A DNA stretch of 24,324 nt from a virus. This document shows positions 4,578-23,225 of the stretch, one piece after another (position 1 is the stretch's first letter; every line of letters starts with the position of its first letter). The position numbers and the translations under genes are program-made. The notes beneath the pieces were generated by a model, which searched no databases, was not told where the DNA came from, and worked only from the letters and a program-made list of their open reading frames with translations. The stretch lies in the UHGV virus genome UHGV-0175638; one strand, written 5' to 3'.

Positions 4578-5431
4578 GCACCATCCTGAAATGGGCGGGT
4601 AATAAAACCGCCATTATGTCCGAACTGAAAAAATACCTTCCTGCTGGCCCGCGACTGGTTGAACCTTTCGCGGGTTCTTGTGCTGTGATGATGGCGACGG
4701 ATTACCCCAGCTATCTGGTTGCGGATATTAATCCTGATTTAATCAACCTCTATAAAAAGATTGCCGCTGATTGCGAAGCGTTTATATCTCGTGCCAAAGT
4801 TTTATTTGAGGAAGTAAACAGTGAGCTGGCTTATTACAACATAAGACAGGAGTTTAATTACTCAACTGAAATTACTGATTTCATGAAGGCGATATATTTC
4901 CTGTATCTCAATCGTCACGGTTACCGTGGTTTATGTCGCTATAACAAGAGCGGGTATTTCAACATTCCCTACGGTAATTATAAAAATCCGTATTTCCCTG
5001 AAAAAGAAATTCGCGCATTTGCAGAGAAAGCCCAGCGGGCAACGTTTATCTGCGCGAGCTTTGATGAAACGCTGGCGATGCTGCAGGTGGGGGATGTGGT
5101 GTATTGCGATCCGCCGTATGACGGTACGTTTTCCGGCTATCACACTGATGGTTTCACTGAAGATGACCAGTATCACCTGGCATCCATTCTTGAACATCGG
5201 TCATCAGAAGGACATCCGGTCATTGTTTCTAACAATGACACATCCCTGATTCGTTCGCTGTATCGCAATTTTACTCACCACTATATCAAGGCAAAACGCA
5301 GCATCGGCGTGTCAGCTGGCGAGGGTAAATCTGCAACAGAAATCATTGCTGTTTCCGGGCCGAGCTGCTGGTTGGGATTTGATCCTTCGCGTGGCGTGGA
5401 TAGTTCTGCCGTGTACGGAGTGTGTGTATGA
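4574..5431 (+). CDS. dam: DNA N6-adenine methyltransferase (Dam-like, orphan)
   Basis: ATG at 4574 preceded by GGAGG; N-terminal LKWAGNK...EPFAGS (AdoMet binding) and the DPPY catalytic motif (VYCDPPYDG); no adjacent restriction endonuclease. Confidence 0.85.
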
Positions 5432-7842
5432 GTCATGACGATATGAACAATTGCAGCGGCTTTAACGAGGCCGCCGCAGCATTTTCATGGAACGGCTCGA
5501 AAAAGGCCATTAACCCTTATCTGGACCCGGCGGAAGTTGCGCCGGAGTCTGCACTTTCAAACCTGATCACTCTGTACGCTGCCGATAACGAGCAGGAGCA
5601 ACTGCGCCGCGAGGCACTGAGTGAGCAGGTCTGGGAGCGTTATTTCTTTAATGAATCCCGTGATCCTGTCCAGCGCGAAATGGAGCAGGATAAGCTCATT
5701 AGCCGGGCAAAGCTGGCGCATGAGCAGCAGCGTTTTAATCCGGACATGGTCATTCTGGCGGACGTAAACGCCCAGCCTTCCCATATCAGCAAGCCGCTGA
5801 TGCAACGTATTGAATACTTCAGCAGCCTGGGCAGGCCAAAGGCTTATTCCCGCTATTTGCGTGAGACGATTAAGCCATGTCTGGAGCGACTGGATTGTGT
5901 ACGTGACAGTCAGCTATCTGTTTCTTTCCGTTTTATGGCAAGCCATCAAGGGCTGGAGGGGCTGCTGATCCTGCCTGAAATGAGCCAGGATCAGGTGAAA
6001 CGCCTGTCCACCCTGGTAGCAGCGCATATGAGCATGTGTCTTGAGGACGCTTGTGGTGATTTGTATGCCACCGATGACGTTAAGCCAGAAGAAATCCGCA
6101 AGACATGGGAAAAGGTGGCAGCGGAAACCCTGCGTCTGGATGTTATCCCGCCTGCGTTTGAGAAACTTCGTCGGAAAAGAAACCGCCGCAAACCAGTGCC
6201 CTATGAACTCATCCCGGGTTCGCTGGCGCGTATGTTGTGTGCCGACTGGTGGTATCGGAAATTATGGAAGATGCGTTGCGAATGGCGGGAAGAGCAGTTG
6301 CGTGCTGTCTGCCTGGTCAGCAAAAAAGCATCCCCCTATGTCAGCTATGAAGCCGTGATGCATAAACGTGAGCAGCGCCGTAAGTCGCTGGAGTTTTTTC
6401 GTTCTCATGAACTGGTGAACGAAGACGGCGACACGCTGGATATGGAAGATGTGGTAAACGCCAGCAGCAGCAACCCGGCGCATCGCCGCAATGAGATGAT
6501 GGCCTGTGTTAAAGGTCTGGAGCTTATCGCGGAAATGCGCAGTGACTGTGCCGTTTTCTACACTATCACCTGTCCGTCGCGTTTCCATTCCACGCTCAAT
6601 AACGGCAGACCAAACCCGACCTGGACAAACGCGACGGTAAGACAAAGTAGCGATTATCTGGTCGGCATGTTTGCTGCATTTCGTAAGGCTATGCATAAAG
6701 CCGAGTTGCGCTGGTATGGCGTGCGGGTAGCTGAGCCGCATCATGACGGTACTGTGCACTGGCATCTCATGTGTTTCATGCGTAAAAAAGACCGCCGCGC
6801 CATCACTGCATTACTGCGTAAGTTTGCCATCCGTGAAGACCGCGAGGAGCTGGGCAATAACACGGGACCACGCTTTAAGTCTGAGCTGATAAACCCGCGC
6901 AAAGGTACGCCAACAAGCTACATCGCGAAATACATCAGTAAGAACATTGACGGGCGTGGTCTGGCTGGGGAGATCAGCAAGGAAACGGGTAAATCCCTGC
7001 GTGATAACGCTGAATACGTTAATGCCTGGGCGTCTCTGCATCGTGTTCAGCAATTCCGCTTCTTTGGCATTCCGGGGCGTCAGGCTTACCGTGAACTGCG
7101 ATTGCTGGCTGGTCAGGCGGCAAGGCAACAGGGTGACAAAAAAGCAGGTGCGCCGGTACTGGATAACCCGCGCCTTGATGCCATTCTGGCTGCTGCTGAT
7201 GCTGGTTGTTTTGCCACCTATATCATGAAGCAGGGCGGCGTACTGGTTCCCCGTAAATATCACCTCATCAGAACCGCTTATGAAATCAACGAAGAGCCAA
7301 CCGCCTATGGCGATCACGGTATTCGTATTTATGGCATCTGGTCACCCATTGCAGAGGGCAAGATCTGCACTCATGCGGTGAAGTGGAAAATGGTTCGTAA
7401 GGCCGTTGACGTTCAGGAGGCGGCAGCCGACCAGGGCGCTTGCGCCCCTTGGACTCGTGGCAATAACTGTCCCCTTGCTGAAAATTTGTACCAACAAGGG
7501 AAAGACAAATCAGCTGATGGGGATACCAGAACGGATATCACCCGTATGGATGACAAGGAGTTGCACGATTACCTGCACAGTATGAACAAAAAAGAGCGCC
7601 GGGAACTGGCTGTAAGGTTACGCCTGGTGAAACCGAAACGGCGTAGAGACTACAAACAGCGAATTACAGACCATCAACGACAGCAGCTCGTCTATGAACT
7701 GAAGTCCAGAGGATTTGATGGCAGCGAGAAAGAGGTCGATTTACTCCTTCGCGGCGGCAGCATTCCGTCAGGAGCAGGCCTGCGTATCTTCTATCGGAAC
7801 CAGCGTTTGCAGGAAGATGATAAGTGGCGGAACCTGTATTAA
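5428..7842 (+). CDS. A: Rolling-circle replication initiation protein (P2 gpA / 186 A family)
   Basis: About 804 aa; HUH-type motif [10 protein letters not shown]; start ATG 5428 overlaps the dam stop (ATGA), implying translational coupling; size and position match gene A. Confidence 0.85.
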
Positions 7843-7995: not shown

Positions 7996-8184
7996 ATGCA
8001 GGACTATTTTTTGGAGTCTTTGAAGCTCCAGCGCATTGATTTTTTTCTTAAGCTTGTAGCGGCTAGTGAGTGTAGTGATGAAGAGAAGGGGCTGGCTCTG
8101 CAGTGGGTTTCTGAACTAACAGATGAACTCATGGCAAAAATCAGAACCCACGAATACAACCGCTCAATGGATGTCATCAGCTGA
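7996..8184 (+). CDS. Small SOS-controlled protein (62 aa), first gene of the tum-like module
   Basis: ATG at 7996 preceded by AGGAGG; the longer track ORF (7894-8184) would read through the LexA box and promoter, so the shorter start is preferred. Confidence 0.55.
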   Translation: MQDYFLESLKLQRIDFFLKLVAASECSDEEKGLALQWVSELTDELMAKIRTHEYNRSMDVIS

Positions 8185-8194
8185 GGTGACTTTT

Positions 8195-8428
8195 ATGCGC
8201 ATTGAAATAATGATCGATAAAGAGCAGAAGATTAGCCAGTCTACACTGGACGCCCTTGAATCCGAGCTTTACCGCAATCTGCGCCCCCTGTATCCCAAAA
8301 CGGTAATTCGTATCCGCAAAGGTAGCTCTAACGGTGTGGAACTGACCGGACTGCAACTGGACGAAGAAAGAAAACAAGTGATGAAAATTATGCAGAAGGT
8401 GTGGGAAGACGACAGCTGGCTGCATTAA
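8195..8428 (+). CDS. DinI-like protein (77 aa), likely Tum-type antirepressor component
   Basis: MRIEIMIDKEQKIS...ALESELYRNL...VWEDDSWLH parallels E. coli DinI from memory; ATG at 8195 preceded by GAGGTG; downstream of the LexA box. Confidence 0.65.
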   Translation: MRIEIMIDKEQKISQSTLDALESELYRNLRPLYPKTVIRIRKGSSNGVELTGLQLDEERKQVMKIMQKVWEDDSWLH

Positions 8429-8563
8429 GAAACGTTGCTGGCGTCTGAACTTGTTTCTGGCGTCAGCAAGGTTGAACAACGAGCCCTTGCGAGGCGTTAG
8501 CTCTGTAGTGCATGTCTATGCCGCATGAGATCGCATGATCGTTTGAGGATCGTTTTTGCTAAG

Positions 8564-8588
8564 GCCCGCCAGAACTGGCGGGCTTTTG
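8564..8588 (+). terminator. Rho-independent terminator ending the SOS/early operon
   Basis: GCCCGCCAG-AA-CTGGCGGGC hairpin followed by TTTTG. Confidence 0.7.
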
Positions 8589-8632
8589 CGTAGATCATGC
8601 AGGTGCATGAAAACCACTACATAAAGCGGGCA

Positions 8633-8651
8633 GGCGTGGCGGGGATACGAG
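8633..8651. other. Candidate cos site (cohesive-end sequence) of the P2/186 family
   Basis: GGCGTGGCGGGGATACGAG; the first 13 nt match the 186 cohesive end as I remember it (GGCGTGGCGGGGAAAGCAT). Relies on memory. Confidence 0.4.
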
Positions 8652-8769
8652 CGCGCGCCATAACCGTTAGAGATGCTGGGTACTAAAGCTATATACAGAA
8701 AAGAAGAATACAATTAAACTAGTAGAATATGAGAAAAATCAATAGTATGGTTAGCTAATTAGGGAAGTA

Positions 8770-9939
8770 GTGATGATAAGTTTAGAAAAATTTCAAATTT
8801 CCAATTTTTGGGGTTCGAAAAATATTACTTTAGATTTTCATAGTAAGTTTGTGATCCTAACAGGACACAATGGCTCAGGTAAATCTACCATCTTGGAGAT
8901 TCTACATGATTCATTTAGTCTTATGCATGACGGGGAAGTTCAAACTATTCATGAGTCTTGGGCTAGTGAGCTAAATTTTAGCGATGAAAGTTTAGCTAGG
9001 AGCTATTTTTTAGGTGACGATATTGAATTGCAGGATGCTTTAAAAAGAAGAATAGAAAACAGTGCAAAAAAAACTATTAAACTTGATATTTTTAACTCAT
9101 TTGATTTCATAAATAAAACAATAAATAATTACACAAAGAAAAAAAATAAAGATTTTTTAGTTAAGAAAGATTTCTCCTCATCATTAAAGAAAAAATCTTT
9201 TATGACTATGCAGTATCATCCAACAAAAGATGATATGAAATTTCCTAAAACTATTTTCTTTAAAGATAGCCGAGTCCTCTATAACACGGTTAGCGATGAA
9301 GTTAAAGAAGTTAACGACTTAGATATATTCAACGAAGCAGACAGCATTAACAAGACACTTTACTTACTAATGAGTTCTTTCATTATTGAGGAGTCTAAGA
9401 ATAAAAAGCTGAAGTTCAAAGATAAAAATGAATTAAAAAAGATGTTTATAAATGAATTAAAATCAGAACAAGCTTTTATGGGGGAGCTAAAAACGTCTGA
9501 TGAACAGTTAATGTCAAAGCTTGAAAGTTTGGTTGATAGAGTGTTTTTAAAAGAAATAAAAAATAATTCGTGGGGTGGGGGGCTTTTTTCAGCAATAAAT
9601 GAATTCCTAAAGAAAACAAAAAGAAGTGTGACTAGAGATGAAAAAGGTTTCATTGCTTTTAAACTTAACAATGGAAGTATTATAAAGTGGTATAATTTTT
9701 CAAGAGGTGAGAAAACTCTTCTTGTTCTTTTGTTAAGTGTTTTTTTGAATAAAGATAAAGATGTTATTTTTATTTTGGATGAACCAGATTTATCATTACA
9801 CATTGAGTGGCAGGAATTATTATTACCTAATTTGTCGCGTTTAGCTCCGGAGAGACAGTTTATATTATCTACACATTCCCCTGCTCTTGTAGGTAATATC
9901 GAAGAGCAATACTTAAATATTGCTGCTATTACGGAGTGA
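8770..9939 (+). CDS. ABC/SMC-like P-loop ATPase (389 aa), first gene of the AT-rich cargo cassette; candidate defence ATPase (AriA/OLD-ATPase-like)
   Basis: Walker A GHNGSGKST; signature-like FSRGEKTLL; Walker B VIFILDEPDLSLH; H-loop LSTHSP; long Lys/Asn-rich insert between Walker A and B; strongly AT-rich; ATG at 8773 preceded by AGGGAAG. Confidence 0.75.
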   Translation: MMISLEKFQISNFWGSKNITLDFHSKFVILTGHNGSGKSTILEILHDSFSLMHDGEVQTIHESWASELNFSDESLARSYFLGDDIELQDALKRRIENSAKKTIKLDIFNSFDFINKTINNYTKKKNKDFLVKKDFSSSLKKKSFMTMQYHPTKDDMKFPKTIFFKDSRVLYNTVSDEVKEVNDLDIFNEADSINKTLYLLMSSFIIEESKNKKLKFKDKNELKKMFINELKSEQAFMGELKTSDEQLMSKLESLVDRVFLKEIKNNSWGGGLFSAINEFLKKTKRSVTRDEKGFIAFKLNNGSIIKWYNFSRGEKTLLVLLLSVFLNKDKDVIFILDEPDLSLHIEWQELLLPNLSRLAPERQFILSTHSPALVGNIEEQYLNIAAITE

Positions 9940-9945
9940 GTTATT

Positions 9946-10983
9946 ATGGATGTTAATTCTCTCGGGTTCAAATCTCAGTCATCTTATTACAAAAAGTCAT
10001 CTATTTTTTTGGGTGAGAATCAACCAAGATGGGTTGCTGTCTGGGTCGAATCAGATGATGATAAAAAACTATGGTTTCCAGTGTTGAAGCATTCATATAA
10101 AAAAATAAACTTTAAATTTCATATTGCCTCCCTGCATAAGTTTAAAGATGGAAAGATATCTGATGGATGTTCAAGAATTTTTGCAAAAATTAAGAGCGGT
10201 GAAATTGAACTAGGAAGTTCCACAATTGCTTGCTTAGATAGCGATTACAGCTATATATCAGGTAACTATGCTTGCAAGCAAAAGGAATTATTGGAATCAC
10301 CTCATGTTTTTCAAACATATGTCCATTCTAAGGAGAATATATATGTTCACCCGATTGGAATTATTCAACTTTTTGAGCGTGCTTTAGGTGAAGACTTGGA
10401 GCAGTTAGGTATAAATGTAGAATGTTTTACTGAAAAATTATCCATCTCAATATATGAATATCTTGTAAAGTTGATATCGCTCTATCGCCTAAATGATCTA
10501 AAAGCATTCGATCTATATCATAAACAGTTCATGGATAATTTCAAAACAATTATGAATGAGATGAAATTACCAGAGGATCTCTCGTCTGATTATGAAAGCC
10601 TTTTGAAGGCGAAGCTTACTGATTTTGATACGGAACTTACACAGCATATAAAAAGCACTCATGGAATAAGTGTGATTGATGATACAAATCAAAGATTTAG
10701 AGAGATTGAAGTTAATCCGTCTGATTCATTGAACTTTATACGTGGCCATGATTTGTATCCTGTAATGATGAAAATATATAAGAGTATAGATCAGTATGTT
10801 TTCAAAGTTAAACGTGATCAATATAATCAAGAACACATATCTGATGAGATAAGGCAAAAGAAACAGAGGGAGATGGGTAATAAACGTGTGGATATTGAAG
10901 ACTTAATATGTACCCGGGGTGATGTTAAGGATAATCAATATTTCTCACGCACCATTAAGAAGCTTAATACATTGTTTGCATAG
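9946..10983 (+). CDS. Partner protein (345 aa) with Toprim-like acidic motifs (DUF4435/OLD-nuclease-like); candidate effector
   Basis: Starts 6 nt after the ATPase stop with GGAG upstream (operon); N-terminal VAVWVESDDDKK (Toprim-like E...D) and ACLDSDYSY (DxD-like); AT-rich. Fold assignment is inference from motifs only. Confidence 0.6.
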   Translation: MDVNSLGFKSQSSYYKKSSIFLGENQPRWVAVWVESDDDKKLWFPVLKHSYKKINFKFHIASLHKFKDGKISDGCSRIFAKIKSGEIELGSSTIACLDSDYSYISGNYACKQKELLESPHVFQTYVHSKENIYVHPIGIIQLFERALGEDLEQLGINVECFTEKLSISIYEYLVKLISLYRLNDLKAFDLYHKQFMDNFKTIMNEMKLPEDLSSDYESLLKAKLTDFDTELTQHIKSTHGISVIDDTNQRFREIEVNPSDSLNFIRGHDLYPVMMKIYKSIDQYVFKVKRDQYNQEHISDEIRQKKQREMGNKRVDIEDLICTRGDVKDNQYFSRTIKKLNTLFA

Positions 10984-10987
10984 GTTA

Positions 10988-11022
10988 AATGCATTGCCTG
11001 AAAATAGGCAGTGCATTTAATT
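10988..11022. terminator. Hairpin between the convergent cassette and portal gene (possible bidirectional terminator)
   Basis: AATGCATTGCCT-GAAAAT-AGGCAGTGCATT (11 of 12 bp paired) followed by TTAATT. Confidence 0.4.
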
Positions 11023-11067
11023 GGTATTGTGAATATTAACTGCACTCGTTGAATTTAATATTTATTG

Positions 11068-12096
11068 CTAGAGGTTGTATACATCAAATTTTATGATTTC
11101 TTCTCCATGCCAGTCATTTAACTCCATCATTCTTTTTTGTAGAGGAATAAGTTCATTTCTTACAAATACTTTACTAGCCTTCTCCACATCCCCAAAACCA
11201 CCAACATTACTTGGCATGATCCCCATCATCTGCGGCGGAACGCGGTGCGCTGCCATCATGTCATCCCGGCTCACGTTCTTGATGTTCAGAAACTCATCTT
11301 TTGCTGCGACTTCTGACAACGGGATGATTTGGATGCCGTCCTTCTTTCCGTTGGGGGAGTACATAAACAGGTTACGGAAGTTACCAGGACCTTTGGCGCT
11401 TTTCATCGCATTGCGGAGGTTGTTCACATCCTCCTGGTTCTGCGCTGCATCGGTCATGTACATGATGAAGCCTGCATGACTGCCGTTAATGTAATACTTG
11501 CGGCGGAACAGCGTGGCGGACTCGTTGAGCAGAGCTGACGGAATAGCAGAAAGATAACCGGGCAGGCCGTAGATCTCCTGGTTGATGTCCGGTTCCATCA
11601 GATGAAAAATGTTGCCTTTCGTGAACTGATACGGCTGCGTAGTCATGCCGTATTGCACAAACCAGTAGGTATCAAGGTCTAACCCGCGTCGGGTGTATTT
11701 TGCCAGTGCAGGCTCAAGGGCGATAACTTCACCGAAGCGGTTCGTGCGTTTCTCCAGGTAGGCGTTACCAAAAACCAGATAGTCCTGTACAAAACGCGAA
11801 AAAGCCTGCTGGCTGAGCAGCGGGTGAGGGATGTAGGTGCTGGTCAGAATGTTGCACTTCACTGCAATCGGTGAGCTGTGATGCACGGCGGCGCGGAAGG
11901 TTCGCGCCAGTCCGTCGAAACTCACAGGCGGCTCGTACCAACGATCCATCTGTACGCATTCCACATAGTCCAGCAGTTCGCGGCGGTCCAGAACAGGAAC
12001 GGGATCACCGAAGCTGAATGCTTCGGCTGAAGTCTGGCTTTTATGCTGGATCTGTTTTGTCGACGCAGCGCGGTTCTTCTTACTCTTTCCCATCAA
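11068..12096 (-). CDS. Q: Portal protein (P2 gpQ family)
   Basis: 342 aa; first late gene on the minus strand; start overlaps the terminase stop; size, position and sequence resemble P2 Q from memory. Confidence 0.85.
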   Translation of the reverse strand: MMGKSKKNRAASTKQIQHKSQTSAEAFSFGDPVPVLDRRELLDYVECVQMDRWYEPPVSFDGLARTFRAAVHHSSPIAVKCNILTSTYIPHPLLSQQAFSRFVQDYLVFGNAYLEKRTNRFGEVIALEPALAKYTRRGLDLDTYWFVQYGMTTQPYQFTKGNIFHLMEPDINQEIYGLPGYLSAIPSALLNESATLFRRKYYINGSHAGFIMYMTDAAQNQEDVNNLRNAMKSAKGPGNFRNLFMYSPNGKKDGIQIIPLSEVAAKDEFLNIKNVSRDDMMAAHRVPPQMMGIMPSNVGGFGDVEKASKVFVRNELIPLQKRMMELNDWHGEEIIKFDVYNL

Positions 12097-15913: not shown

Positions 15914-16564
15914 ATGAGCCTGAGTCCCGCACGGCAGCATCGCCTGCGCGTTCAGGCTGAACAGGCCGCCCGCGAGGGCGGCAGCGTTCGCCACGCGTCG
16001 GGCTATGACCTGATGCTGCTGCAACTGGCGGAAGACCGCCGCCGTCTCAAGGGCGTTCAGTCCACGGTGAAAAAAGCGGAAATCAAGGTGGAGCTGCTGC
16101 CGAAATATGCCGCCTGGGCGGAGGGCGTCCTGGCTGCCGGAGGCGCTCAACAGGATGACGTGCTGATGTACGTGATGCTGTGGCGCATTGATGCCGGAGA
16201 TTATGCCGGGGCGCTGGAGATCGGGCGTCATGCCCTGCGTCATGGCTGGGTGATGCCGCTGGGTAACCGCAACGTGCAGACCGTGCTGGCAGAGGAAATG
16301 GCAGATGCAGCGCAGAGCGCAATGCTTGCCGCCACCGGCTTTGATGCCGATCTGTTGCTGCAGACGCTGGAGCTGACAGACGGTCTGGATATGCCGGACC
16401 AGTCACGGGCGCGTCTGCATAAAGCGATTGGCGCTGTCCTGAGTGAAAGCAATCCGGCTTCCGCCCTTAATCATCTCAACCATGCGTTACAGCTCGATCC
16501 CCGCTGTGGCGTGAAAAAAGACAAACAGCAGCTGGAGCGCAGACTGCGCAATGACAGCCGCTGA
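15914..16564 (+). CDS. M: Terminase small/endonuclease subunit (P2 gpM family)
   Basis: 216 aa; position after N; resembles P2 M from memory. Confidence 0.8.
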   Translation: MSLSPARQHRLRVQAEQAAREGGSVRHASGYDLMLLQLAEDRRRLKGVQSTVKKAEIKVELLPKYAAWAEGVLAAGGAQQDDVLMYVMLWRIDAGDYAGALEIGRHALRHGWVMPLGNRNVQTVLAEEMADAAQSAMLAATGFDADLLLQTLELTDGLDMPDQSRARLHKAIGAVLSESNPASALNHLNHALQLDPRCGVKKDKQQLERRLRNDSR

Positions 16565-16659
16565 CAGAACGTGCCCCCGCGCACGGGCGGCACGAGGTGG
16601 CGAAAGGCACTGCCACATCAAAACCCCGTCCACCGCCCTTTATTTCAGGAGAAAGCAGC

Positions 16660-17124
16660 ATGAAGTTTGTTGCGCCAGAACAGGCACCGGAACAGGCGGA
16701 AATCATCAGAAATACGCCGTTCTGGCCTGATGTGGACCTGTCGGAGTTTCGCAGTGTCATGCGCACTGACGGCACGGTGACGCAGCCGCGTTTAAAGCAG
16801 GTTGCGCTGTCGGCAATTTCGGAGGTCAACGCAGAGCTGTATGAGTTTCGCAGACGCCAGCAGATGCTGGGGTATGCCTCGCTGGCAGAAGTCCCGGCGG
16901 AACAACTGGACGGCAAAAGCGAGCGCATTCAGCACTATTTCAACGCGGTTTACTGCTGGGCACGCGCCATGCTCAACGAACGTTACCAGGACTATGACGC
17001 CACGGCATCCGGTGCGAAGCGAGGCGAGGAACTGGCGGAAGCAAGCGGTAATTTATGGCGTGACGCCCGCTGGGCCATCAGCCGGGTGCAGGATGCGCCG
17101 CACTGCACAGTGGAGCTTATCTGA
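16660..17124 (+). CDS. L: Head completion/stabilisation protein (P2 gpL family)
   Basis: ATG at 16660 preceded by CAGGAG (track ORF starts earlier at 16597 without an RBS); position after M. Confidence 0.75.
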   Translation: MKFVAPEQAPEQAEIIRNTPFWPDVDLSEFRSVMRTDGTVTQPRLKQVALSAISEVNAELYEFRRRQQMLGYASLAEVPAEQLDGKSERIQHYFNAVYCWARAMLNERYQDYDATASGAKRGEELAEASGNLWRDARWAISRVQDAPHCTVELI

Positions 17125-17327
17125 TGAAAGTGCGTGCGCATCAGTATGACACGGTGGACGCACTTTGCTGGCGTCATTACGGGCGCACGCAGGGTGTCAC
17201 GGAGCAGGTACTGAAGGCAAATCCGGGGCTTGCCGAATACGGCCCCTTTTTACCTCACGGGCTGCAGGTGGAGCTGCCGGACATTCCGACAACCACCACC
17301 GTGCAGACCGTCCAGCTATGGGACTGA
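17124..17327 (+). CDS. X: Tail protein X (P2 gpX family)
   Basis: 67 aa; ATG overlaps the L stop; conserved position before the lysis cassette. Confidence 0.75.
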   Translation: MKVRAHQYDTVDALCWRHYGRTQGVTEQVLKANPGLAEYGPFLPHGLQVELPDIPTTTTVQTVQLWD

Positions 17328-17330
17328 ATT

Positions 17331-17546
17331 ATGACGCTTGAGCGAATCAGCGCCTTTATCACGTATTGCATCGCCGTCGTGCTGGCCTGGCTGGGCGATT
17401 TGTCCATCAAGGATGCCTCAACGCTGGGCGGCCTGATGATTGGTGTACTGATGCTGGCTATCAACTGGTACTACAAACACAAAGCCTACCAGCTTCTGCG
17501 CGACGGGCAGATCTCGCGGGAGGATTATGAATCCATCAATCGTTAA
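17331..17546 (+). CDS. Holin, two transmembrane segments (pinholin-like)
   Basis: 71 aa with two hydrophobic helices (ISAFITYCIAVVLAWL, LGGLMIGVLMLAINWYY) and a charged C-terminus; overlaps the endolysin start. Confidence 0.7.
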   Translation: MTLERISAFITYCIAVVLAWLGDLSIKDASTLGGLMIGVLMLAINWYYKHKAYQLLRDGQISREDYESINR

Positions 17547-18039
17547 ACGCTGCCTTGTCGGGGCCGTGCTGGCTATTGCTGCCACGCTGCCGGGTTTTCA
17601 GCAGCTTCACACCTCCGTGGAGGGACTGAAACTGATTGCCGATTACGAAGGCTGTCGTCTGCAGCCGTATCAGTGCAGCGCGGGTGTATGGACTGACGGC
17701 ATTGGTAATACGTCGGGCGTCATTCCCGGCAAAACCATTACGGAACGACAGGCAGCAGAAGGGCTTATCTCCAACGTGCTGCGTGTGGAGCGGTCACTGG
17801 AAAGGTGTGTGAAGCAACAGCCACCGCAGAAAGTGTATGACGCGGTGGTGTCATTTGCCTTCAACGTGGGGACAGGCAATGCCTGCAGCTCCACGCTGGT
17901 GAAATTGCTCAATCAGCGGCGCTGGGCGGATGCGTGCCGACAGTTGCCGCGCTGGGTGTATGTGAAAGGTGTGTTTAATCAGGGGCTGGATAACCGCCGT
18001 GCGCGGGAGATGGCCTGGTGCTTACAGGGAGCAAACTGA
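17527..18039 (+). CDS. Endolysin, T4-lysozyme fold with N-terminal SAR (signal-anchor-release) segment
   Basis: Hydrophobic Gly/Ala-rich N-terminus (CLVGAVLAIAATLPG), then an E-x8-D-x5-T triad (EGCRLQPYQCSAGVWTDGIGNT); the C-terminal region resembles phage 21 SAR endolysin from memory. Confidence 0.8.
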   Translation: MNPSIVKRCLVGAVLAIAATLPGFQQLHTSVEGLKLIADYEGCRLQPYQCSAGVWTDGIGNTSGVIPGKTITERQAAEGLISNVLRVERSLERCVKQQPPQKVYDAVVSFAFNVGTGNACSSTLVKLLNQRRWADACRQLPRWVYVKGVFNQGLDNRRAREMAWCLQGAN

Positions 18040-18040
18040 A

Positions 18041-18418
18041 ATGAAAAAGAAATTAATCAGCGGACTGTTTCTGATGTTATGGATGGCGCTGTTAATCGCA
18101 GCAATGGTGTATCCGCAGGGGATTTTTCCGGTACTGGCAGCGTCCGGCGTTTGGGTAGCCTGTTTACTGACATGGGCGGCAATTCCGGTAGCACTGGCTG
18201 CGTTAATTAAGAATGGCTCGCTCTGGCAGGAGTTGAGGGTATCTTTGCTGAAGACCATTACCCGAAAAGAAAACGTATTTATCAGCTGGGTGATGCGATT
18301 GCTGATTGTCGTAAGTCTCGTCTGGACGGGGTGGGCTATTACCCTGGTCTTTTATCTACTGACCGTTATTGCCTTCTGGATCACCCGTAATCAGATGGCG
18401 CAACAGGTAGCAGCATGA
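18041..18418 (+). CDS. lysA: LysA-like membrane protein (lysis timing)
   Basis: 125 aa, four predicted TM helices; ATG at 18041 preceded by AGGGAG, directly after the endolysin stop. Confidence 0.7.
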   Translation: MKKKLISGLFLMLWMALLIAAMVYPQGIFPVLAASGVWVACLLTWAAIPVALAALIKNGSLWQELRVSLLKTITRKENVFISWVMRLLIVVSLVWTGWAITLVFYLLTVIAFWITRNQMAQQVAA

Positions 18419-18843
18419 ACCGGTTGCTGCTGGTTATGCTGGCGTTATTACTGGCGGCGCTGGGCTGGCAGACGTGGCGGCTGGCTGATGCCAGCCGGAC
18501 CATCAGCACGCAGGCGGACGAGCTGCAGAGCAAAAGCCAGGCACTGGCAAAGAGCAACAGCCAGCTTATCAGCCTGTCCATTCTGACTGAAACCAATAAC
18601 CGGGAGCAGGCGCGGCTCTATGCCGACGCAGAACAGACCAGCGCGCTGCTGAGACAACGACAACGCCGGATTGAGGAACTGAAACGTGAGAACGAGGATT
18701 TACGCCGCTGGGCTGATACTCCTTTGCCTGCTGACATTATCCGGCTGCGGGAACGTCCGGCACTCACCGGAGGTGCAGCTTACCGTCAGTGGTTGTCCGC
18801 GAGTGACGCCGTGTCGGCTGGATCAGACAGCGCCGCGCACTAA
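18415..18843 (+). CDS. lysB: LysB (Rz-like inner-membrane spanin)
   Basis: 142 aa; N-terminal TM (LLLVMLALLLAALGW) then coiled-coil periplasmic domain; start overlaps the lysA stop (ATGA). Confidence 0.75.
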   Translation: MNRLLLVMLALLLAALGWQTWRLADASRTISTQADELQSKSQALAKSNSQLISLSILTETNNREQARLYADAEQTSALLRQRQRRIEELKRENEDLRRWADTPLPADIIRLRERPALTGGAAYRQWLSASDAVSAGSDSAAH

Positions 18844-18973
18844 CGGTGAGCTGAACGCGTTGCTGGATGAAACGGAGGCCGCCTGGGCGGTCTGTGCAGA
18901 CAAAGTGGACATGATTATTGCGTGTCAGGAGCGAAACAGTGAACAAACCACAATCCCTGCGCCACGCCCTTAA
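18686..18973 (+). CDS. lysC: LysC (Rz1-like outer-membrane lipoprotein spanin), embedded in the +1 frame of lysB
   Basis: 95 aa; lipobox LTLSGC after a signal peptide; Pro-rich; begins inside lysB and extends past it, as in P2. Confidence 0.65.
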   Translation: MRTRIYAAGLILLCLLTLSGCGNVRHSPEVQLTVSGCPRVTPCRLDQTAPRTNGELNALLDETEAAWAVCADKVDMIIACQERNSEQTTIPAPRP

Positions 18974-19370
18974 TAAAGCAGTGCCTTATGTCCGCAATAA
19001 CCCGGACAAACTGCATCTGTTTGTGGATAACGGTTCGCTGGTTGCCACGGGGACCAGCTCCATGTCGTGGGAGTACCGTTACACCCTGAACGCAGTGATT
19101 GAGGATTTCAGCGGCGACCAGAATCTGCTGATGGCCCCGGTTTTGCTGTGGCTGCGGGATAACCAGCCCGATGCCATCAATAACCCGGCGTTACGGGAAA
19201 AACTATTCACCTTTGAGGTGGATATTCTGCGCAACGATGTCTGTGATATCAGCCTGAACCTGCAACTGACGGAGCGTGTGCTGGTCAGTACTGACGGCAG
19301 TGTGTCGAGCGTTGAAGCTATAGCGGAACCTGATGAACCTGAAGAAATGTGGACGGTGAAACGTGGCTGA
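18939..19370 (+). CDS. R: Tail completion protein R (P2 gpR family)
   Basis: Likely GTG start at 18939 preceded by AGGAG (track ORF starts at TTG 18918); resembles P2 R from memory. Confidence 0.75.
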   Translation: MNKPQSLRHALNKAVPYVRNNPDKLHLFVDNGSLVATGTSSMSWEYRYTLNAVIEDFSGDQNLLMAPVLLWLRDNQPDAINNPALREKLFTFEVDILRNDVCDISLNLQLTERVLVSTDGSVSSVEAIAEPDEPEEMWTVKRG

Positions 19371-19809
19371 ATTGCAGAAGGTGGACGACTGGCTGAGTGC
19401 CTTGCTGGCGAATCTGGAGCCAGCCGCAAGAAGCCGCATGATGCGCCAGCTGGCGCAGGAACTGCGCCGGACACAGCAGCAGAACATCAGGATGCAGCGC
19501 AATCCAGATGGCAGCAGTTATGAGCCGCGACGGGTAACAGCACGCAGCAAAAAGGGGCGCATCAAACGTCAGATGTTTACAAAGCTGCGCACCACAAAAT
19601 ACCTGAAAACTGCCGCCAGCGCCGATTCTGCCAGCGTGCAGTTTGAAGGTAAGGTGCAGCGCATTGCCCGCGTTCATCACTACGGCCTGCGTGATCGCAT
19701 CAGTCGAAGAGGACCGGAGGTCCGTTACGCAGAGCGTCGTCTCCTAGGCGTAAATGATGATGTGGAAACTGTCATTCAGGATGCTTTGCTAAATTGGTTA
19801 CAGAGATAA
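19363..19809 (+). CDS. S: Tail completion protein S (P2 gpS family)
   Basis: 148 aa; start overlaps the R stop; conserved order. Confidence 0.75.
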   Translation: MAELQKVDDWLSALLANLEPAARSRMMRQLAQELRRTQQQNIRMQRNPDGSSYEPRRVTARSKKGRIKRQMFTKLRTTKYLKTAASADSASVQFEGKVQRIARVHHYGLRDRISRRGPEVRYAERRLLGVNDDVETVIQDALLNWLQR

Positions 19810-19835
19810 ATAAAACCACATTTATAAAATTTAGT

Positions 19836-20750
19836 TTACTTTTTACTGATAAATGGATTCCTATCAATCCATGAGTCCCAGTTTATATAATTGTCATCAA
19901 ATCCTATGAATTTCATTAGTACAAGTGGCACCAGTAAATTCAAATTTGATGAGTAATCTTGAATTTCAATTTTGCCATCTGAGTTTTTTTCATCAAGATA
20001 GGCAATGTATTTACCATTGTGGAACAGCGAGTGACGGAGTTTGCAGTAATGCATAATGTTTCTTTGAGCTAATGTATGTCCTGTTTTTTCGACATTAAAA
20101 CCATATTCTTTTAAAACCTGAGTGATTATTTGTGGTGTTTTGGCAGGGGAGTAGTCATTTTTAATAAATCTGCAAAGTGCTTCTAGTGCCGAGAATAATA
20201 AATAATATCTGACGTCGATATAATTTATTGAGTCGCGGAAAGCTAGCATTGATTTAAAAAATGATGTTCTAAAGGCATCTTGTTTTAGCATGGCTTTACT
20301 ATTTAGTTTTTCCATGGCTAAGCAAATAAATTTTTCTCGGCTGTTTGGTGCAAAATAATCTTCCATGATGATAATGCCCGCACCCTTATCTCTTTTTTTG
20401 TCAAGCTTTTTGGGTAGAGATGGTTTGAAATTGAAAGGGGTTTCATCATTTTCAAGTTCTCCTGAAATGATTACATTTTTTTGTTCAATAAAACTAAGAA
20501 CTGCTTGTAAATCAAAAATAAGCTGCTGTTGAGTGGCGTAGTTATTCGAGTTTGGTTTGAAAAAACCAGTGAGGATGTACCTATCATTAGCCCAGCCATT
20601 TTTTTTTAACTCACTCCATGAACTGAAAATAGGAGTTAACTCACCACCGTCAAATGTGATTTTTTTAGTGAAATTAAATCCATAAATTGCGATTTGTGTC
20701 ATCTTAAATACCTTAGAAATTGTTTCTCTTTTGTGTGGTTCTCCATACAT
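19836..20750 (-). CDS. AT-rich hypothetical protein (288-304 aa) on the opposite strand inside the late region; candidate accessory/defence gene
   Basis: Long intact antisense ORF between S and V (position of P2 orf30); markedly AT-rich; alternative start ATG at 20702; C-terminal R-x4-H motif (LRHSLFH). Confidence 0.65.
   Translation of the reverse strand: MYGEPHKRETISKVFKMTQIAIYGFNFTKKITFDGGELTPIFSSWSELKKNGWANDRYILTGFFKPNSNNYATQQQLIFDLQAVLSFIEQKNVIISGELENDETPFNFKPSLPKKLDKKRDKGAGIIIMEDYFAPNSREKFICLAMEKLNSKAMLKQDAFRTSFFKSMLAFRDSINYIDVRYYLLFSALEALCRFIKNDYSPAKTPQIITQVLKEYGFNVEKTGHTLAQRNIMHYCKLRHSLFHNGKYIAYLDEKNSDGKIEIQDYSSNLNLLVPLVLMKFIGFDDNYINWDSWIDRNPFISKK
20732..20749 (+). promoter_or_regulatory. 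Late-promoter activator site (TGT-N12-ACA dyad) upstream of V
   Basis: TGTGTGGTTCTCCATACA, 14 of 18 identical to the dyad at 13906-13923; about 57 nt upstream of the V ATG; overlaps the 5' extension of the antisense ORF. Confidence 0.5.
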
Positions 20751-20797
20751 ACGCTCTGTATTACATCACTCTACCCGGTTGTGCAAGGATCGCTCTC

Positions 20798-21376
20798 ATG
20801 AATGCACAACTGACTGAAATCATGCGCCTTATCACCAACCTGATCCGCACTGGTGTAGTCACCGAGGTGGACCGGGAGAACTGGCTTTGCCGGGTGAAAA
20901 CGGGCGACCTTGAAACCAACTGGATTAACTGGCTGACACTGCGCGCGGGCAAATCGCGCACCTGGTGGAAACCGTCTGTGGGCGAGCAGGTTGTGCTGTT
21001 CAGCCTGGGTGGCAATCTGGAAACCGCCTTTGCGTTGCCCGCCATCTATTCGAATCAGTTCGCACCGCCGTCAACGTCGGCGGAAGCCTGCGTGACAGAA
21101 CATCCTGATGGTGGCTGGTTTGAATACGAACCAGCCACCGGGCGCTGGTATGTCAGGGGCATCAAATCCATGGTCATTGAGGCTGCCGACAACATCACCC
21201 TGAAAACCAGTGAGTTTGTGCTGGAGGCTGACCGCACGCGTATTAACAGTGAAGTGGTGATCAATGGTGGCGTTACCCAGGGCGGCGGTGCAATGAGTTC
21301 TAACGGGATCGTGGTTGATGCGCATCAGCATACTGGCGTCCTGAAAGGCGGCGACACAACCGGAGGCCCGGTATGA
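20798..21376 (+). CDS. V: Baseplate spike/assembly protein V (P2 gpV family)
   Basis: ATG at 20798 preceded by AAGGA (track ORF starts at 20720); N-terminus resembles P2 V from memory. Confidence 0.8.
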   Translation: MNAQLTEIMRLITNLIRTGVVTEVDRENWLCRVKTGDLETNWINWLTLRAGKSRTWWKPSVGEQVVLFSLGGNLETAFALPAIYSNQFAPPSTSAEACVTEHPDGGWFEYEPATGRWYVRGIKSMVIEAADNITLKTSEFVLEADRTRINSEVVINGGVTQGGGAMSSNGIVVDAHQHTGVLKGGDTTGGPV

Positions 21377-21732
21377 CGCTTTATATCGGGATGAACAATA
21401 CCAGCGGTAAAGCTATTACTGATATTGACCATCTGCGCCAGTCGGTGCGGGACATTCTGCTGACACCGCAGGGTAGCCGCATTGCCCGCCGGGAATATGG
21501 TTCCCTGCTGTCGGCTTTAATAGATCAGCCACAAAATCCGGCGTTACGCCTGCAGGTCATGTCGGCTGTGTATGTGGCACTGAGTCGCTGGGAGCCACGG
21601 CTGACGCTGGATTCCATCACCATCAACAGCAATTTTGACGGTTCAATGGTGGTGGAGCTGACCGGGCGGCGGAATAACGGTGTGCCTGTGTCCCTTTCCG
21701 TATCAACAGGAGCAGAGAATGGCAGTGATTGA
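21373..21732 (+). CDS. W: Baseplate protein W (gp25/GPW lysozyme-like family)
   Basis: 119 aa; start overlaps the V stop (ATGA); conserved order. Confidence 0.8.
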   Translation: MTLYIGMNNTSGKAITDIDHLRQSVRDILLTPQGSRIARREYGSLLSALIDQPQNPALRLQVMSAVYVALSRWEPRLTLDSITINSNFDGSMVVELTGRRNNGVPVSLSVSTGAENGSD

Positions 21733-22627
21733 CCTTTCGCAGTTGCCTGCGCCGCAGATTGTGGATGTGCCGAACTTTGAGACGCTGCTTGCCGAACGCA
21801 AGGCAGAATTTGTGGCGCTTCATCCGAAAGATGAGCAGGAGGCTGTGATCCGCACGCTGGAACTGGAATCTGAACCCGTCACCAAATTGCTGCAGGAGAA
21901 CGCTTACCGTGAGTTGCTTCTGCGCCAGCGCATTAACGAAGCCGCGCAGGCGGTGATGGTGGCTTACGCGATGGGCGGCGATCTGGACCAGCTCGCTGCC
22001 AACTACAACGTGAAACGCCTGACGGTGACGCCTGCTGATGATGACGCTGTGCCGCCCGTTGCAGCTGTGATGGAAAGCGATGAAGCGTTACGCCTGCGTG
22101 TGCCTGCAGCCTTTGAGGGGCTTTCAGTTGCGGGGCCAACTGCAGCTTATGAATTTCATGCCCGAAGCGCCGACGGTCGGGTGGCGGATGCCAGTGCAAC
22201 CAGCCCGGCACCTGCAGAGGTGGTGCTGACTGTCCTTAGCCGCGAAGGCGATGGAACAGCAGAAAAAGACCTGCTGGATGTGGTGGAGAAAGCCCTGAAC
22301 AGTGAGAACGTCCGCCCGGTGGCTGACCGTCTGACGGTTCGCAGTGCAGAAATCATCCCGTACCGCGTGGAAGCTACCATTTTTCTCTATCCGGGGCCGG
22401 AAGCAGAGCCGGTAATGGCAGCGGCAAAAGCCAGCCTGCAGAGGTACATTGCCAGTCAGACGCGGCTTGGTCGGGATATTCGCCGTAGCGCCATTTTTGC
22501 CGCGCTGCATGTTGAGGGTGTTCAGCGTGTGGAACTGGCTTCCCCGCTGGCGGATGTGGTCCTGAACAAAACGCAGGCGGCATCATGTACGGAGTGGAGC
22601 GTGACCAACGGGGGAACGGATGAATAG
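21719..22627 (+). CDS. J: Baseplate protein J (P2 gpJ family)
   Basis: About 302 aa from ATG 21719 (track ORF starts at GTG 21680); conserved order. Confidence 0.8.
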   Translation: MAVIDLSQLPAPQIVDVPNFETLLAERKAEFVALHPKDEQEAVIRTLELESEPVTKLLQENAYRELLLRQRINEAAQAVMVAYAMGGDLDQLAANYNVKRLTVTPADDDAVPPVAAVMESDEALRLRVPAAFEGLSVAGPTAAYEFHARSADGRVADASATSPAPAEVVLTVLSREGDGTAEKDLLDVVEKALNSENVRPVADRLTVRSAEIIPYRVEATIFLYPGPEAEPVMAAAKASLQRYIASQTRLGRDIRRSAIFAALHVEGVQRVELASPLADVVLNKTQAASCTEWSVTNGGTDE

Positions 22628-23225
22628 TCTGCTGCCACCGGGTTCAACACCACTGGAGCGCCGACTGGCACAAACCTGCAGCGGGATTTCTGATTTGCAG
22701 GTGCCGCTGCGTGACCTGTGGGATCCGGCTACCTGTCCGGTCAGTTTCCTGCCTTATCTCGCCTGGGCGTTCTCTGTGGATCGATGGGACGAGGGCTGGA
22801 CGGAAAGCGTCAAACGCCAGGTGGTGAAGGATGCTTTTTATATACATCAGCATAAAGGAACCACCAGTGCCGTGCGGCGGGTGGTGGAGCCGTTCGGCTT
22901 CCTGATCCGCATTATTGAGTGGTGGCAGACCGGAGAAACACCCGGCACGTTTCGCCTGGATATTGGCGTGCAGGACCAGGGCATCACTGAAGATACCTAT
23001 CTGGAACTTGAGCGGCTGATAAGCGATGCCAAACCATGCAGCCGTCACATGACTGGCATGTCCATCAATCTGCAGACCAGCGGTCCGCATTGGGTAGGGG
23101 CTGCCAGCTATCTTGGCGAAGAAATCACGATCTATCCGTATATCAACGAAACGATTATTTCCGGCGGCACCGCGCATGAGGGCGGGGCAGTCCACGTTAT
23201 TGACACAGTGAGAGTGAATCCATGA
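22620..23225 (+). CDS. I: Baseplate/tail protein I (P2 gpI family)
   Basis: 201 aa; start overlaps the J stop; conserved order. Confidence 0.8.
   Translation: MNSLLPPGSTPLERRLAQTCSGISDLQVPLRDLWDPATCPVSFLPYLAWAFSVDRWDEGWTESVKRQVVKDAFYIHQHKGTTSAVRRVVEPFGFLIRIIEWWQTGETPGTFRLDIGVQDQGITEDTYLELERLISDAKPCSRHMTGMSINLQTSGPHWVGAASYLGEEITIYPYINETIISGGTAHEGGAVHVIDTVRVNP

Follow-up and report, generated by a model that had tools for sequence, protein, structure and literature searches.

We propose that the two AT-rich genes beside the cos site of this P2/186-like prophage very probably constitute a PARIS (phage anti-restriction induced system) abortive-infection module, carried by the prophage as a moron. 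The window, that is, the whole 24,324-nucleotide stretch of DNA that was analysed, holds an intact ariA-ariB operon in which all ATPase and Toprim catalytic residues are present, the two products have AriA-like and AriB-like folds, and the position of the gene pair is conserved among relatives (features are listed in Table 1). PARIS and the hotspot in which it resides have both been described already, and no new kind of system is revealed; the finding is real but ordinary, a divergent, putative copy of the known PARIS system in a known location.

Table 1. Features of the cos-to-portal region (nucleotide positions in the window, except for the AriA motifs, which are given as residues)
Feature	Position	Strand	Description
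Intrinsic-terminator-like hairpin and U-tract	8558..8593	+	End of upstream early operon
cos cohesive-end equivalent, GGCGTGGCGGGGATACGAG	8633..8651	.	From alignment to the P2 right end (cosR); 14 of 19 bases as in the P2 cohesive end
AT-rich cargo segment	8659..11067	+	Insert separating cos from the stop codon of portal gene Q; 31.2% GC
Weak candidate promoter	8668..8696	+	TTAGAG, 17 nt, TATATA; read by eye from spacer sequence and alignment
Shine-Dalgarno-like AGGGAAG for ariA	8761..8767	+	5 nt ahead of the ATG at 8773
ariA-like gene	8773..9939	+	388-aa ABC ATPase; predicted sensor and scaffold
AriA motifs	Walker A 32-40; signature 311-315; Walker B/D-loop 332-340; H-loop 367-371	+	From family alignment
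GGAG ribosome-binding site for ariB	9933..9936	+	Inside the 3' end of ariA; 9 nt ahead of the ATG at 9946
ariB-like gene	9946..10983	+	345-aa DUF4435/Toprim nuclease; predicted effector
18-bp near-perfect palindromic hairpin	10983..11022	.	Separates the stop codons of ariB and Q
Portal gene Q	11068..12096	-	ORF; RefSeq 'phage portal protein'; right-hand hotspot flank

The assignment to PARIS is based on agreement between domain models, defence-system models and protein folds. In the published MacSyFinder rule, PARIS is an ATPase scoring at least 32 bits against AAA_15 or at least 27 bits against AAA_21, with an adjacent, co-oriented protein scoring at least 27 bits against DUF4435 (Rousset et al. 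2022; PMC9122126). Here the first product scores 77.9 bits against AAA_21 (1.8e-21) and 74.6 bits against AAA_15 (1.5e-20), the second scores 52 bits against DUF4435 (1.1e-13), and the genes lie on one strand with 6 nt between them (9940-9945). In PADLOC, the AriA model PDLC04164 is the first of 95 matches to the first product (121.9 bits, 8.1e-36), followed at a distance by PtuA (77.6 bits) and AbiLi (50.1 bits), and the second product is recognized by AriB models only, namely PDLC04165 (8.5e-19) and PDLC02983 (3.2e-16). The initial annotation, made from the sequence alone, had been undecided between PARIS and AbiL and had named profile-HMM and PADLOC searches and structure prediction as checks. 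The AAA_21, AAA_15, DUF4435, AriA and AriB models are all matched, and the best PDB folds for the two monomers are AriA and AriB; the choice falls on PARIS, and the AbiL half of the suggestion is set aside. It had called the pair a split version of OLD, which fits the published classification, where PARIS forms class 4 among OLD-like systems (PMC11464382). It had also left open whether the pair is a new variant; a new family it is not, because the existing PADLOC AriB models already recognize the clade: PDLC04165 matches 134 of 140 members, and essentially nothing else does.

Examination of the ATPase supports this assignment. The first gene had been read as an ABC/SMC-like ATPase with Walker A, signature, Walker B and H-loop motifs, and every one of these motifs proves invariant in the family. 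With residues numbered on the 389-aa translation from the GTG at 8770, the key positions are Walker A G32-T40 (with K38), the signature S311-x-G313-E314-K315, D337-E338-P-D340 and H369; K38, E338, S311, G313, E314, K315, D340 and H369 do not vary among 37 AriA homologues. Alignment to AriA of Escherichia coli B185 identifies K38 and E338 as the counterparts of its Walker A K39 and Walker B E393, which are required for defence. A sequence search of the PDB finds AriA (8ux9_B, 3.8e-17). When the AlphaFold (AF2) model (pLDDT 82) is compared with the PDB by Foldseek, the best 12 matches are all AriA chains (E = 1e-14 to 7e-13, TM 0.44-0.54), with PtuA structures close behind in the ranking; the TM-scores of both products to solved AriA and AriB are modest, at about 0.44-0.54. 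PHROGs returned only families of unknown function. These PtuA structures, together with PtuA models as strong secondary matches, would suit a Septu or retron-type module in which a PtuA-like ATPase has a non-canonical partner. We give this reading an exceedingly small probability, as the partner is a DUF4435/Toprim protein rather than the HNH protein PtuB, no reverse transcriptase is present in the cargo, and all NCBIfam matches to the ATPase lie far under their cut-offs, PtuA itself scoring 63 bits against a cut-off of 500. Gabija (a GajA that fuses ATPase and Toprim, with a UvrD-like GajB), Septu and retron PtuAB were likewise rejected as candidates, there being no helicase, HNH or reverse-transcriptase gene in the cargo.

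The PARIS assignment of the second product depends on more distant similarity. Its acidic motifs had been noted as arranged in the manner of a Toprim/OLD-type nuclease, and this arrangement is borne out: E35-x3-D39, D98-x-D100 and E130 are present (codons at 10048-10062, 10237-10245 and 10333-10335, respectively), and the five residues are invariant or nearly so in alignments of 35 and of 140 homologues. In an alignment of the family profile to 8ux9_A, residues E35, D39, D98, D100 and E130 correspond to E26, D30, D88, E90 and E122 of B185 AriB. A further motif, F264-x-R-G-H268, is also conserved. For the AlphaFold (AF2) model (pLDDT 89.7), the sole Foldseek match in the PDB at E <= 0.001 is the AriB chain 8ux9_A (1.3e-4, probability 1.00), and the next is a second AriB chain, 8v46_D (1.4e-3; TM 0.45/0.49). 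The family profile also has 8ux9_A as its top PDB match (E = 0.0027). A phmmer search of the PDB with the single sequence retrieved no AriB, only noise (LptE, E about 0.3), and with the broader 140-sequence clade profile the match to AriB was lost, none being found at E up to 0.01. Across validated and catalogued AriB proteins, hhalign probabilities are 0.6-4.9%, and the two comparisons with AriB of E. coli O42 (PARIS-1) give 0.6% and 4.5%, with the catalytic motifs correctly aligned. Because such direct sequence matches are not significant, the link to B185 AriB is drawn from family HMMs, from the way in which the catalytic motifs align and from the fold.

The weak similarity of the second protein to validated AriB proteins would also be expected if the pair were instead AbiL-type, MADS3/4-type or another OLD-like combination of an ATPase with a Toprim protein, possibly with an effector that degrades DNA. 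Consistent with this, the ATPase also matches AbiLi (4.8e-14), mad3 (5.1e-20) and many PtuA models, and these ABC ATPases form one superfamily. We nonetheless regard this alternative as improbable. The AriA model scores 44-72 bits above the AbiLi, mad3 and PtuA models on the same protein, the best structural matches of both products are AriA and AriB, and nearly the whole clade of the second product falls to AriB models. Furthermore, among the Pfam and PADLOC models, no AbiLii, mad4, RloB or OLD-Toprim model matches the second protein at E up to 1, and NCBIfam lacks a model for it. On these grounds AbiL and MADS3-4 were rejected as specific candidates, and so was a class 1 OLD nuclease of the P2 Old kind, given that there are two separate genes and that neither protein matches DUF2813 or OLD-Toprim in Pfam.

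The surroundings of the PARIS-like pair identify its site. The hotspot as published in P2-like prophages borders cos and carries variable cargo in the interval from replication gene A to portal gene Q, and PARIS has already been catalogued in it (Rousset et al. 2022, Table S5B). The order in the window is the same: gpA (5422-7842), cos, cargo and Q. The cos-like site that had been noted beside the cassette is real, as judged by alignment to the P2 right end, which extends over 8598-8651 and in which GGCGTGGCGGGGATACGAG corresponds to the 19-nt cohesive end of P2. A pattern search of the window for the P2 19-mer with at most 3 mismatches found no match, the aligned site differing at 5 positions. 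The cos flank is conserved from about 8598 to 8658, and the region through GCGCGC at 8652-8658 is invariant in four related prophages. The initial annotation had located the cassette where P2 carries old and tin, and this is correct as to the hotspot but not as to the spot within it, because P2 has these two genes across cos from here, in the interval from gpA to cosR; it has only the terminator tQ between cosL and Q.

Similarity to other P2/186-like prophages ends at 8658-8668 and returns at about 11068-11094, which delimits the cargo. The left arm of the window matches strain cM2a and has no DUF4041 gene. The contrast in base composition is marked, as the initial annotation had stated: ariA has 29.8% GC, ariB 33.0% and the whole cargo (8660-11067) 31.2%, while outside the cargo the window has 51.6%, and the genes gpA, Q and P have 50-57%. 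The corresponding GC3 values are 27-30% against 57-61%. The two plus-strand ORFs run from 8770 (GTG) or 8773 (ATG) to 9939 and from 9946 to 10983. In stop-codon-rich DNA of 31% GC, open frames of 388 and 345 codons are far longer than chance would be expected to give, and both have conserved homologues. The reading of the pair as tightly coupled genes, the second with its own ribosome-binding site, also stands.

Signals around the operon were predicted from the nucleotide sequence. The upstream early operon comprises gpA, a 62-aa ORF and a DinI-like gene, and it ends in a hairpin that, when 8555-8600 is folded as RNA, forms an 11-bp GC-rich stem (-23.4 kcal/mol, z = -4.2) followed by UUUU; this predicted terminator would insulate the cassette from upstream read-through. 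A consensus scan found no promoter upstream of ariA, and alignment of the spacer across relatives gave only the weak candidate in Table 1, whose location is shared in part by the relatives in E. coli and Hafnia (TTGATG/TATGTA). The ATG at 8773, rather than the GTG at 8770, is likely the start of ariA, because RefSeq uses the ATG and the homologues are 388 aa long. Beyond ariB, the palindromic hairpin folds on both strands (-22.7 kcal/mol, z = -6.2 on the plus strand; -16.7 kcal/mol, z = -6.3 on the minus strand) and is kept as a palindrome in L002 and L004. The P2 terminator tQ is annotated at the equivalent place, and the hairpin is probably a bidirectional terminator and a positional analogue of tQ.

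The AT-rich cargo is patchily distributed, with 2 occurrences in 5,426 complete E. coli genomes. The earlier reading, an anti-phage cassette of two genes gained by horizontal transfer, is supported. In E. coli, Hafnia and Klebsiella, relatives with as little as 37% identity are found at the equivalent site of 186-like prophages, from cos to the portal gene, and the gene pair is kept with a spacing of 1-6 nt in E. coli, Hafnia, Klebsiella, Pseudomonas and Vibrio. These data bear on whether the genes could, instead of serving phage defence, be a selfish, toxin-antitoxin-like addiction module or a decayed and silent remnant. Pfam labels AAA_21 as 'putative AbiEii toxin, type IV TA', AriB is a potential toxin restrained by AriA, and the promoter scan was negative; AT-rich cargo of this kind is often silenced by H-NS. 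Still, we think such a reading very unlikely. Both reading frames are unbroken and retain all their catalytic residues, identical proteins occur on about 180-240 public contigs, and the retention of partner and position down to 37% identity indicates purifying selection on function. Moreover, PARIS is itself a trigger-dependent, toxin/antitoxin-like abortive-infection system, so that the addiction reading overlaps with the one we favor.

A mechanism for this PARIS can be proposed by analogy with the B185 system. In B185, AriA is a homohexamer, a trimer of dimers assembled through the aromatic helix of insertion sequence 2, and holds up to three AriB through an electrostatic interface between AriA D401/E404 and AriB R28/R31; the triggers Ocr, Ptr1 and Ptr2 cause release of AriB, growth arrest and abortive infection, and the released AriB cleaves specific tRNAs, a reaction in which K60 and K64, the lysines that clamp the anticodon loop, are essential (PMC11464382; PMC12409363). 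The B185 targets are tRNA Lys, Thr or Asn, cut at positions 40/41. By analogy, head-to-tail ABC dimers of AriA would build a larger scaffold that keeps AriB inactive. The residues matching D401/E404 (E346 and E349) are present in AriA, as is the basic residue of AriB that matches R31, and an acidic patch after Walker B (E346, E349) may touch the basic start (K40, K41) of the AriB helix that follows E35. These four residues are found in the enterobacterial clade, but D37 takes the place of B185 R28. One Pseudomonas pair combines AriA K346/K349 with AriB H37/S40, a weak hint of co-variation. [quoted passage not shown] Translation would halt and the infection would be aborted, which would shield the population of lysogens, and the prophage that they carry, from rival phages. 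ARAGORN finds no tRNA genes in the window, so the prophage has no tRNA there that could serve as a decoy.

Several features of the present lineage suggest that parts of this scheme may have diverged, and in particular its trigger and RNA target may differ from those of B185. The lysine-rich loop, at about residues 120-145, is disordered and hypervariable, with a net charge of +7 here and of +7 to -2 among close relatives, and it is at most suggestive of a trigger-sensing site; a further, acidic loop lies at about 172-192. Alignment of the 388-aa AriA to the 464-aa B185 protein is confined to the N- and C-terminal halves of the ATPase, so the hexamer-forming insertion may differ in a protein 76 residues shorter. 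In AriB, a weak profile alignment places B185 K64 on a G-K motif of the clade that is G74-C75 here, and thus the lysine essential in B185 AriB appears to be a cysteine. Position 75 is C in 47 and K in 86 of the 140 clade sequences, and K70 and R77 are conserved nearby. It is conceivable, though on balance doubtful, that the clade is a functionally distinct PARIS variant. Its lysine-rich loop would then respond to phage proteins unlike Ocr, Ptr1 and Ptr2, and its AriB, with cysteine for the clamp lysine, would cut other tRNAs than B185 AriB does or an RNA of another kind. The assembly might also depart from the 6:3 propeller of B185, because the insertion regions of AriA are shortened.

The immediate consequence is an upgraded annotation for proteins on roughly 200 E. 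coli contigs that are now labelled 'AAA family ATPase' and 'DUF4435 domain-containing protein'. The locus also gives PARIS a clearly bounded example within its native flanks, in which the carrier is a helper-type P2/186-like phage and the genes lie on the portal side of cos. Being very far in sequence from the two studied PARIS systems and yet keeping all catalytic residues, it is a convenient natural variant for two questions posed in the PARIS literature, namely whether the set of tRNA targets is conserved across PARIS systems and how the variable loops of AriA relate to trigger specificity.

Comparison with known systems places the cassette nearest to PARIS. AbiL (AbiLi/AbiLii) and MADS3-4 share with it a related AAA_15/21 ATPase and a Toprim-like partner, and are set apart by AbiLi and mad3 models that score far below AriA and by the failure of AbiLii and mad4 to match the second protein. 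P2 Old, a class 1 OLD nuclease that occurs with Tin, shares the prophage family, the cos-proximal hotspot, the chemistry of an ABC ATPase joined to a Toprim domain, and phage exclusion. However, P2 Old is a single polypeptide, in which an N-terminal ATPase (DUF2813/AAA_15) is fused to a C-terminal OLD-type Toprim domain, and its gene lies on the gpA side of cos and is transcribed leftward, whereas the cassette specifies two proteins on the Q side. Closer is PARIS 'system 149' of the P2 gpA-to-gpQ hotspot (WP_001297422 and WP_001297419; Rousset et al. 2022), which lies at the same hotspot in P2-like prophages, has the same Pfam architecture (AAA_21/AAA_15/SMC_N with DUF4435) and is annotated as PARIS. 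It nevertheless belongs to a different lineage: its AriA is only about 30% identical, in a similarity limited to the ABC motifs, and BLAST between the two AriB proteins found no similarity (hhalign probability 4.9%).

The closest known systems are PARIS of E. coli B185 (PARIS-2; PDB 8UX9, 8V45-8V49) and of O42 (PARIS-1), both of which are carried on P4-like satellites, whereas the carrier here is a helper-type P2/186-like phage. The differences from B185 are considerable: the structural alignment gives AriB about 13% identity, a likeness to which phmmer is blind, the pore and insertion regions of the shorter AriA are not alignable, and D37 and C75 stand in place of R28 and of the conserved lysine matching K64. 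Even so, the present cassette shares with B185 and O42 the operon of an ABC ATPase and a DUF4435/Toprim protein, all the ATPase motifs, the five Toprim acidic residues and an AT-rich composition on a mobile element, and these systems provide the best PDB matches in both sequence and fold. As in the B185 clone, the cargo starts directly after cos-GCGCG.

Several lines of evidence indicate that the AT-rich pair of genes between cos and portal gene Q of this P2/186-like prophage is very probably a PARIS system, as judged from its sequence and from modelled folds. First, profile searches, which the initial annotation had proposed as a check, assign AAA_21 (1.8e-21, 77.9 bits), AAA_15 (1.5e-20, 74.6 bits) and SMC_N to ORF1 (ariA-like), and DUF4435 (1.1e-13, 52 bits), with no other notable Pfam match, to ORF2 (ariB-like). 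The operational rule for PARIS is AAA_15 at 32 bits or more or AAA_21 at 27 bits or more, with an adjoining DUF4435 at 27 bits or more (Rousset et al. 2022; PMC9122126), and the cassette exceeds each of these values. Among PADLOC models, AriA is the best of 95 matches to ORF1 (8.1e-36, 121.9 bits), followed at lesser scores by PtuA (77.6 bits), mad3 (70.3) and AbiLi (50.1), and ORF2 matches only two AriB models (8.5e-19 and 3.2e-16). Second, the best PDB sequence match of ORF1 is AriA of the PARIS complex from E. coli B185 (8ux9_B, 3.8e-17), in which only the ATPase halves align (N-terminal 4–46 and C-terminal 271–385). Single-sequence phmmer of ORF2 against the PDB found no AriB; a 35-sequence AriB family profile has AriB 8ux9_A as its top match (E = 0.0027).

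The residues needed for catalysis are intact, as the motifs of an ATPase and a Toprim-like protein noted at the outset had suggested. Numbering AriA from GTG 8770, the family is invariant at Walker A K38, signature S311-x-G313-E314-K315, Walker B D337-E338, D340 and H369. Likewise invariant are E35, D39, D98, D100 and E130 of AriB, which the family profile aligns to E26, D30, D88, E90 and E122 of 8ux9_A, the Toprim metal-binding residues of B185 AriB (PMC11464382). The predicted folds agree. The AlphaFold2 monomer models are confident (AriB, pLDDT 89.7 and pTM 0.85; AriA, pLDDT 82.2 and pTM 0.78), and in Foldseek searches of the PDB the sole match of the AriB model at E ≤ 0.001 is AriB 8ux9_A (E = 1.3e-4, probability 1.00, TM 0.45–0.49, 13% identity), with a second AriB chain next (8v46_D, 1.4e-3). 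For the AriA model, AriA chains fill the first 12 places (E = 1e-14 to 7e-13, TM 0.44–0.54), after which come retron and Septu PtuA. Thus, the proposed anti-phage pair of an ATPase and a DUF4435-type protein is supported, and its family, previously undecided, can now be given as PARIS from Pfam, PADLOC, PDB and Foldseek.

In B185, AriA forms ABC dimers that build a hexameric scaffold sequestering AriB; one of the acidic proteins Ocr, Ptr1 or Ptr2 of an infecting phage binds in an ATP-dependent manner and releases AriB, whose dimer then cuts one strand of tRNA Lys, Thr and Asn at 40/41, arresting translation (PMC11464382, PMC12409363). By homology, a PARIS-type mechanism is most likely here: AriA dimers would form a larger scaffold holding AriB, an acidic phage protein binding AriA with ATP would release it, and the freed AriB dimer would cut tRNA and arrest translation. 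The evidence from the cassette itself consists of complete catalytic sites, folds like those of AriA and AriB, and a gene pairing that is conserved. Residue comparisons lend partial support to a sequestration interface: AriA E346 and E349 correspond to B185 AriA D401 and E404, and AriB K40 and K41 to B185 AriB R31. D37 stands at the position of B185 R28, so that contact is not conserved, and in one pair from Pseudomonas the AriA positions are lysines and AriB has H37 and S40.

Three differences from B185 could matter, namely a short AriA, a variable loop and G74-C75 of AriB. AriA has 388 aa here compared with 464 aa in B185, and its middle does not align. Its model contains two low-confidence loops (128–140 and 175–189), taking in a lysine-rich stretch (120–145) that has a net charge of +7, ranging from +7 to -2 among close relatives; this variation fits the poorly conserved PARIS pore loops, which may set trigger specificity (PMC11464382). 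B185 K64, essential for defence (PMC12409363), aligns weakly to a conserved G-K motif represented here by G74-C75; of 140 clade members, 47 have C and 86 have K at the C75 position.

The organization of the locus is summarized in the table. As first described, the two genes are tightly coupled, with a 6-nt spacing, and are far more AT-rich than the backbone. GGAG stands 9 nt before the ORF2 ATG; 8660–11067 has 31.2% GC and the remaining window 51.6%, and GC3 is 27–30% in the cassette versus 57–61% in gpA and Q. ORF1 likely starts at ATG 8773 rather than GTG 8770, since AGGGAAG precedes it, RefSeq uses the ATG, and both the homologues and the public-record protein have 388 aa. No convincing promoter for the cassette was found in a scan upstream of ariA or by comparing the spacer across relatives.

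Features of the prophage around the ariA-like and ariB-like genes
Feature	Position	Strand	Remarks
Integrase, CI, CII, Fil, Dam-like methylase	left part of window
gpA	5422-7842
Conserved 62-aa ORF	7996-8184		between gpA and cos
DinI-like gene	8195-8428		between gpA and cos; PF06183, 6.6e-23
Strong terminator hairpin	8558-8589		-23.4 kcal/mol; closes upstream operon
ORF1 (ariA-like)	8770/8773-9939	+	between DinI-like gene and Q
ORF2 (ariB-like)	9946-10983	+	between DinI-like gene and Q
18-bp palindrome	10983-11022		-22.7 kcal/mol; between ariB and Q, at place of P2 tQ
Portal gene Q	11068-12096	opposite to gpA and cassette
Terminase gene P, then capsid, lysis, tail genes	beyond Q	same as Q (terminase gene P)
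Tail gene S	19363-19809
Baseplate gene V	20720-21376

The cos-like site upstream proves to be a real cos: the P2 right end aligns with 8598–8651, within which GGCGTGGCGGGGATACGAG (8633–8651) is the counterpart of the 19-nt cohesive end. The core is invariant through GCGCGC (to 8658) in four related prophages and similarity ends there; therefore, the cargo starts 7–8 nt past the cohesive end. P2 carries old and tin between gpA and cosR, with only terminator tQ between cosL and Q, and the cassette, initially placed where old and tin lie, is instead on the other side of cos within the same gpA-to-gpQ hotspot. The same junction of cos, TGCGCG and AT-rich cargo occurs in the B185 PARIS clone, which derives from a P4-like satellite, so that a cohesive end followed by GCGCG and AT-rich DNA (8652–8659 here) is common to both elements. 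One might speculate that the shared cos core is a common recombination boundary for cargo exchange between helper phages and satellites.

The 62-aa ORF and the DinI-like gene are backbone rather than cargo because more than 1,200 E. coli prophages, as well as Klebsiella phages, conserve them. Extra cargo lies on the gpA side of cos in an E. coli relative (L002, 5508–6565; two genes without a Pfam match, 71 and 280 aa) and a Hafnia relative (L004, 878–1618; a reverse-strand DUF4145 gene). Both also carry a PARIS pair on the Q side, and therefore both sides of cos are insertion sites in this lineage. Elsewhere, a second AT-rich moron (19836–20750, minus strand, 34–45% GC locally) lies between S and V, where P2 presumably has orf30. 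Its 288–304-aa product matches solely phrog_4373 (function not known; 4.9e-142), with no match in Pfam or PADLOC; the locus may provide a further accessory or defence function. The window is mosaic relative to both complete genomes with a 100% identical cassette (1–2700 and 16400–24324 compared with L001 and L013). The arm with the integrase and CI matches E. coli cM2a, whose prophage is truncated after gpM, itself fused to a VgrG-like remnant, and the tail arm matches E. coli A16, in which the integrase differs and a DUF4041 gene is present.

The close AriB subfamily is small: a search of 5.8 billion proteins gave 34 relatives at E <1e-14, distributed over E. coli, Hafnia, Serratia, Klebsiella, Leclercia, Enterobacter, Pseudomonas and Vibrio. 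The pair occupies the same site in the same orientation, flanked by cos and the portal gene, in 186-like prophages of E. coli (73% identity), Hafnia (72%) and Klebsiella (37%), where the two genes are 1–3 nt apart; in Pseudomonas and Vibrio the genes stay together but lie in other islands. All these pairs have 30–39% GC irrespective of host. An exhaustive HMM search gave a wider clade of 254 representatives at E ≤ 1e-30 and 1,056 at E ≤ 1e-3, counted as cluster representatives at 50% identity. PADLOC AriB model PDLC04165 matches 134 of 140 sampled members (best E 2.9e-82), and thus existing PARIS models already cover the clade. Of 5,426 complete E. coli genomes, 2 contain the exact cassette, and blastn at distant sensitivity added none; it was not found in the phage collection searched. 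Its exact proteins occur on about 180–240 public contigs, where their names are no more specific than 'AAA family ATPase' and 'DUF4435 domain-containing protein'. In many public E. coli assemblies ariA is represented only by fragments (69–141 aa), on contigs with longest recorded lengths of about 39.2–39.5 kb. We suspect that contigs of draft genomes end within ariA, a gene of 30% GC, and that the cassette is under-counted in such genomes.

AbiL, OLD class 1, Gabija, Septu/retron and MADS3-4 were each considered and rejected, since their partner-gene or HMM criteria fail. Both PARIS and the cos-proximal hotspot of P2-like phages are already known, and the cassette will not surprise a specialist: a PARIS pair, system 149, is listed there with 13 occurrences (Table S5B; PMC9122126). 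AriA of the cassette is about 30% identical to that of system 149, over the ABC motifs only, and BLAST of the two AriB proteins gave no similarity; by these comparisons the cassette is of a different lineage. It is likewise distant from both tested systems, PARIS-1 and PARIS-2, and as a divergent natural variant it would serve studies of trigger and tRNA specificity.
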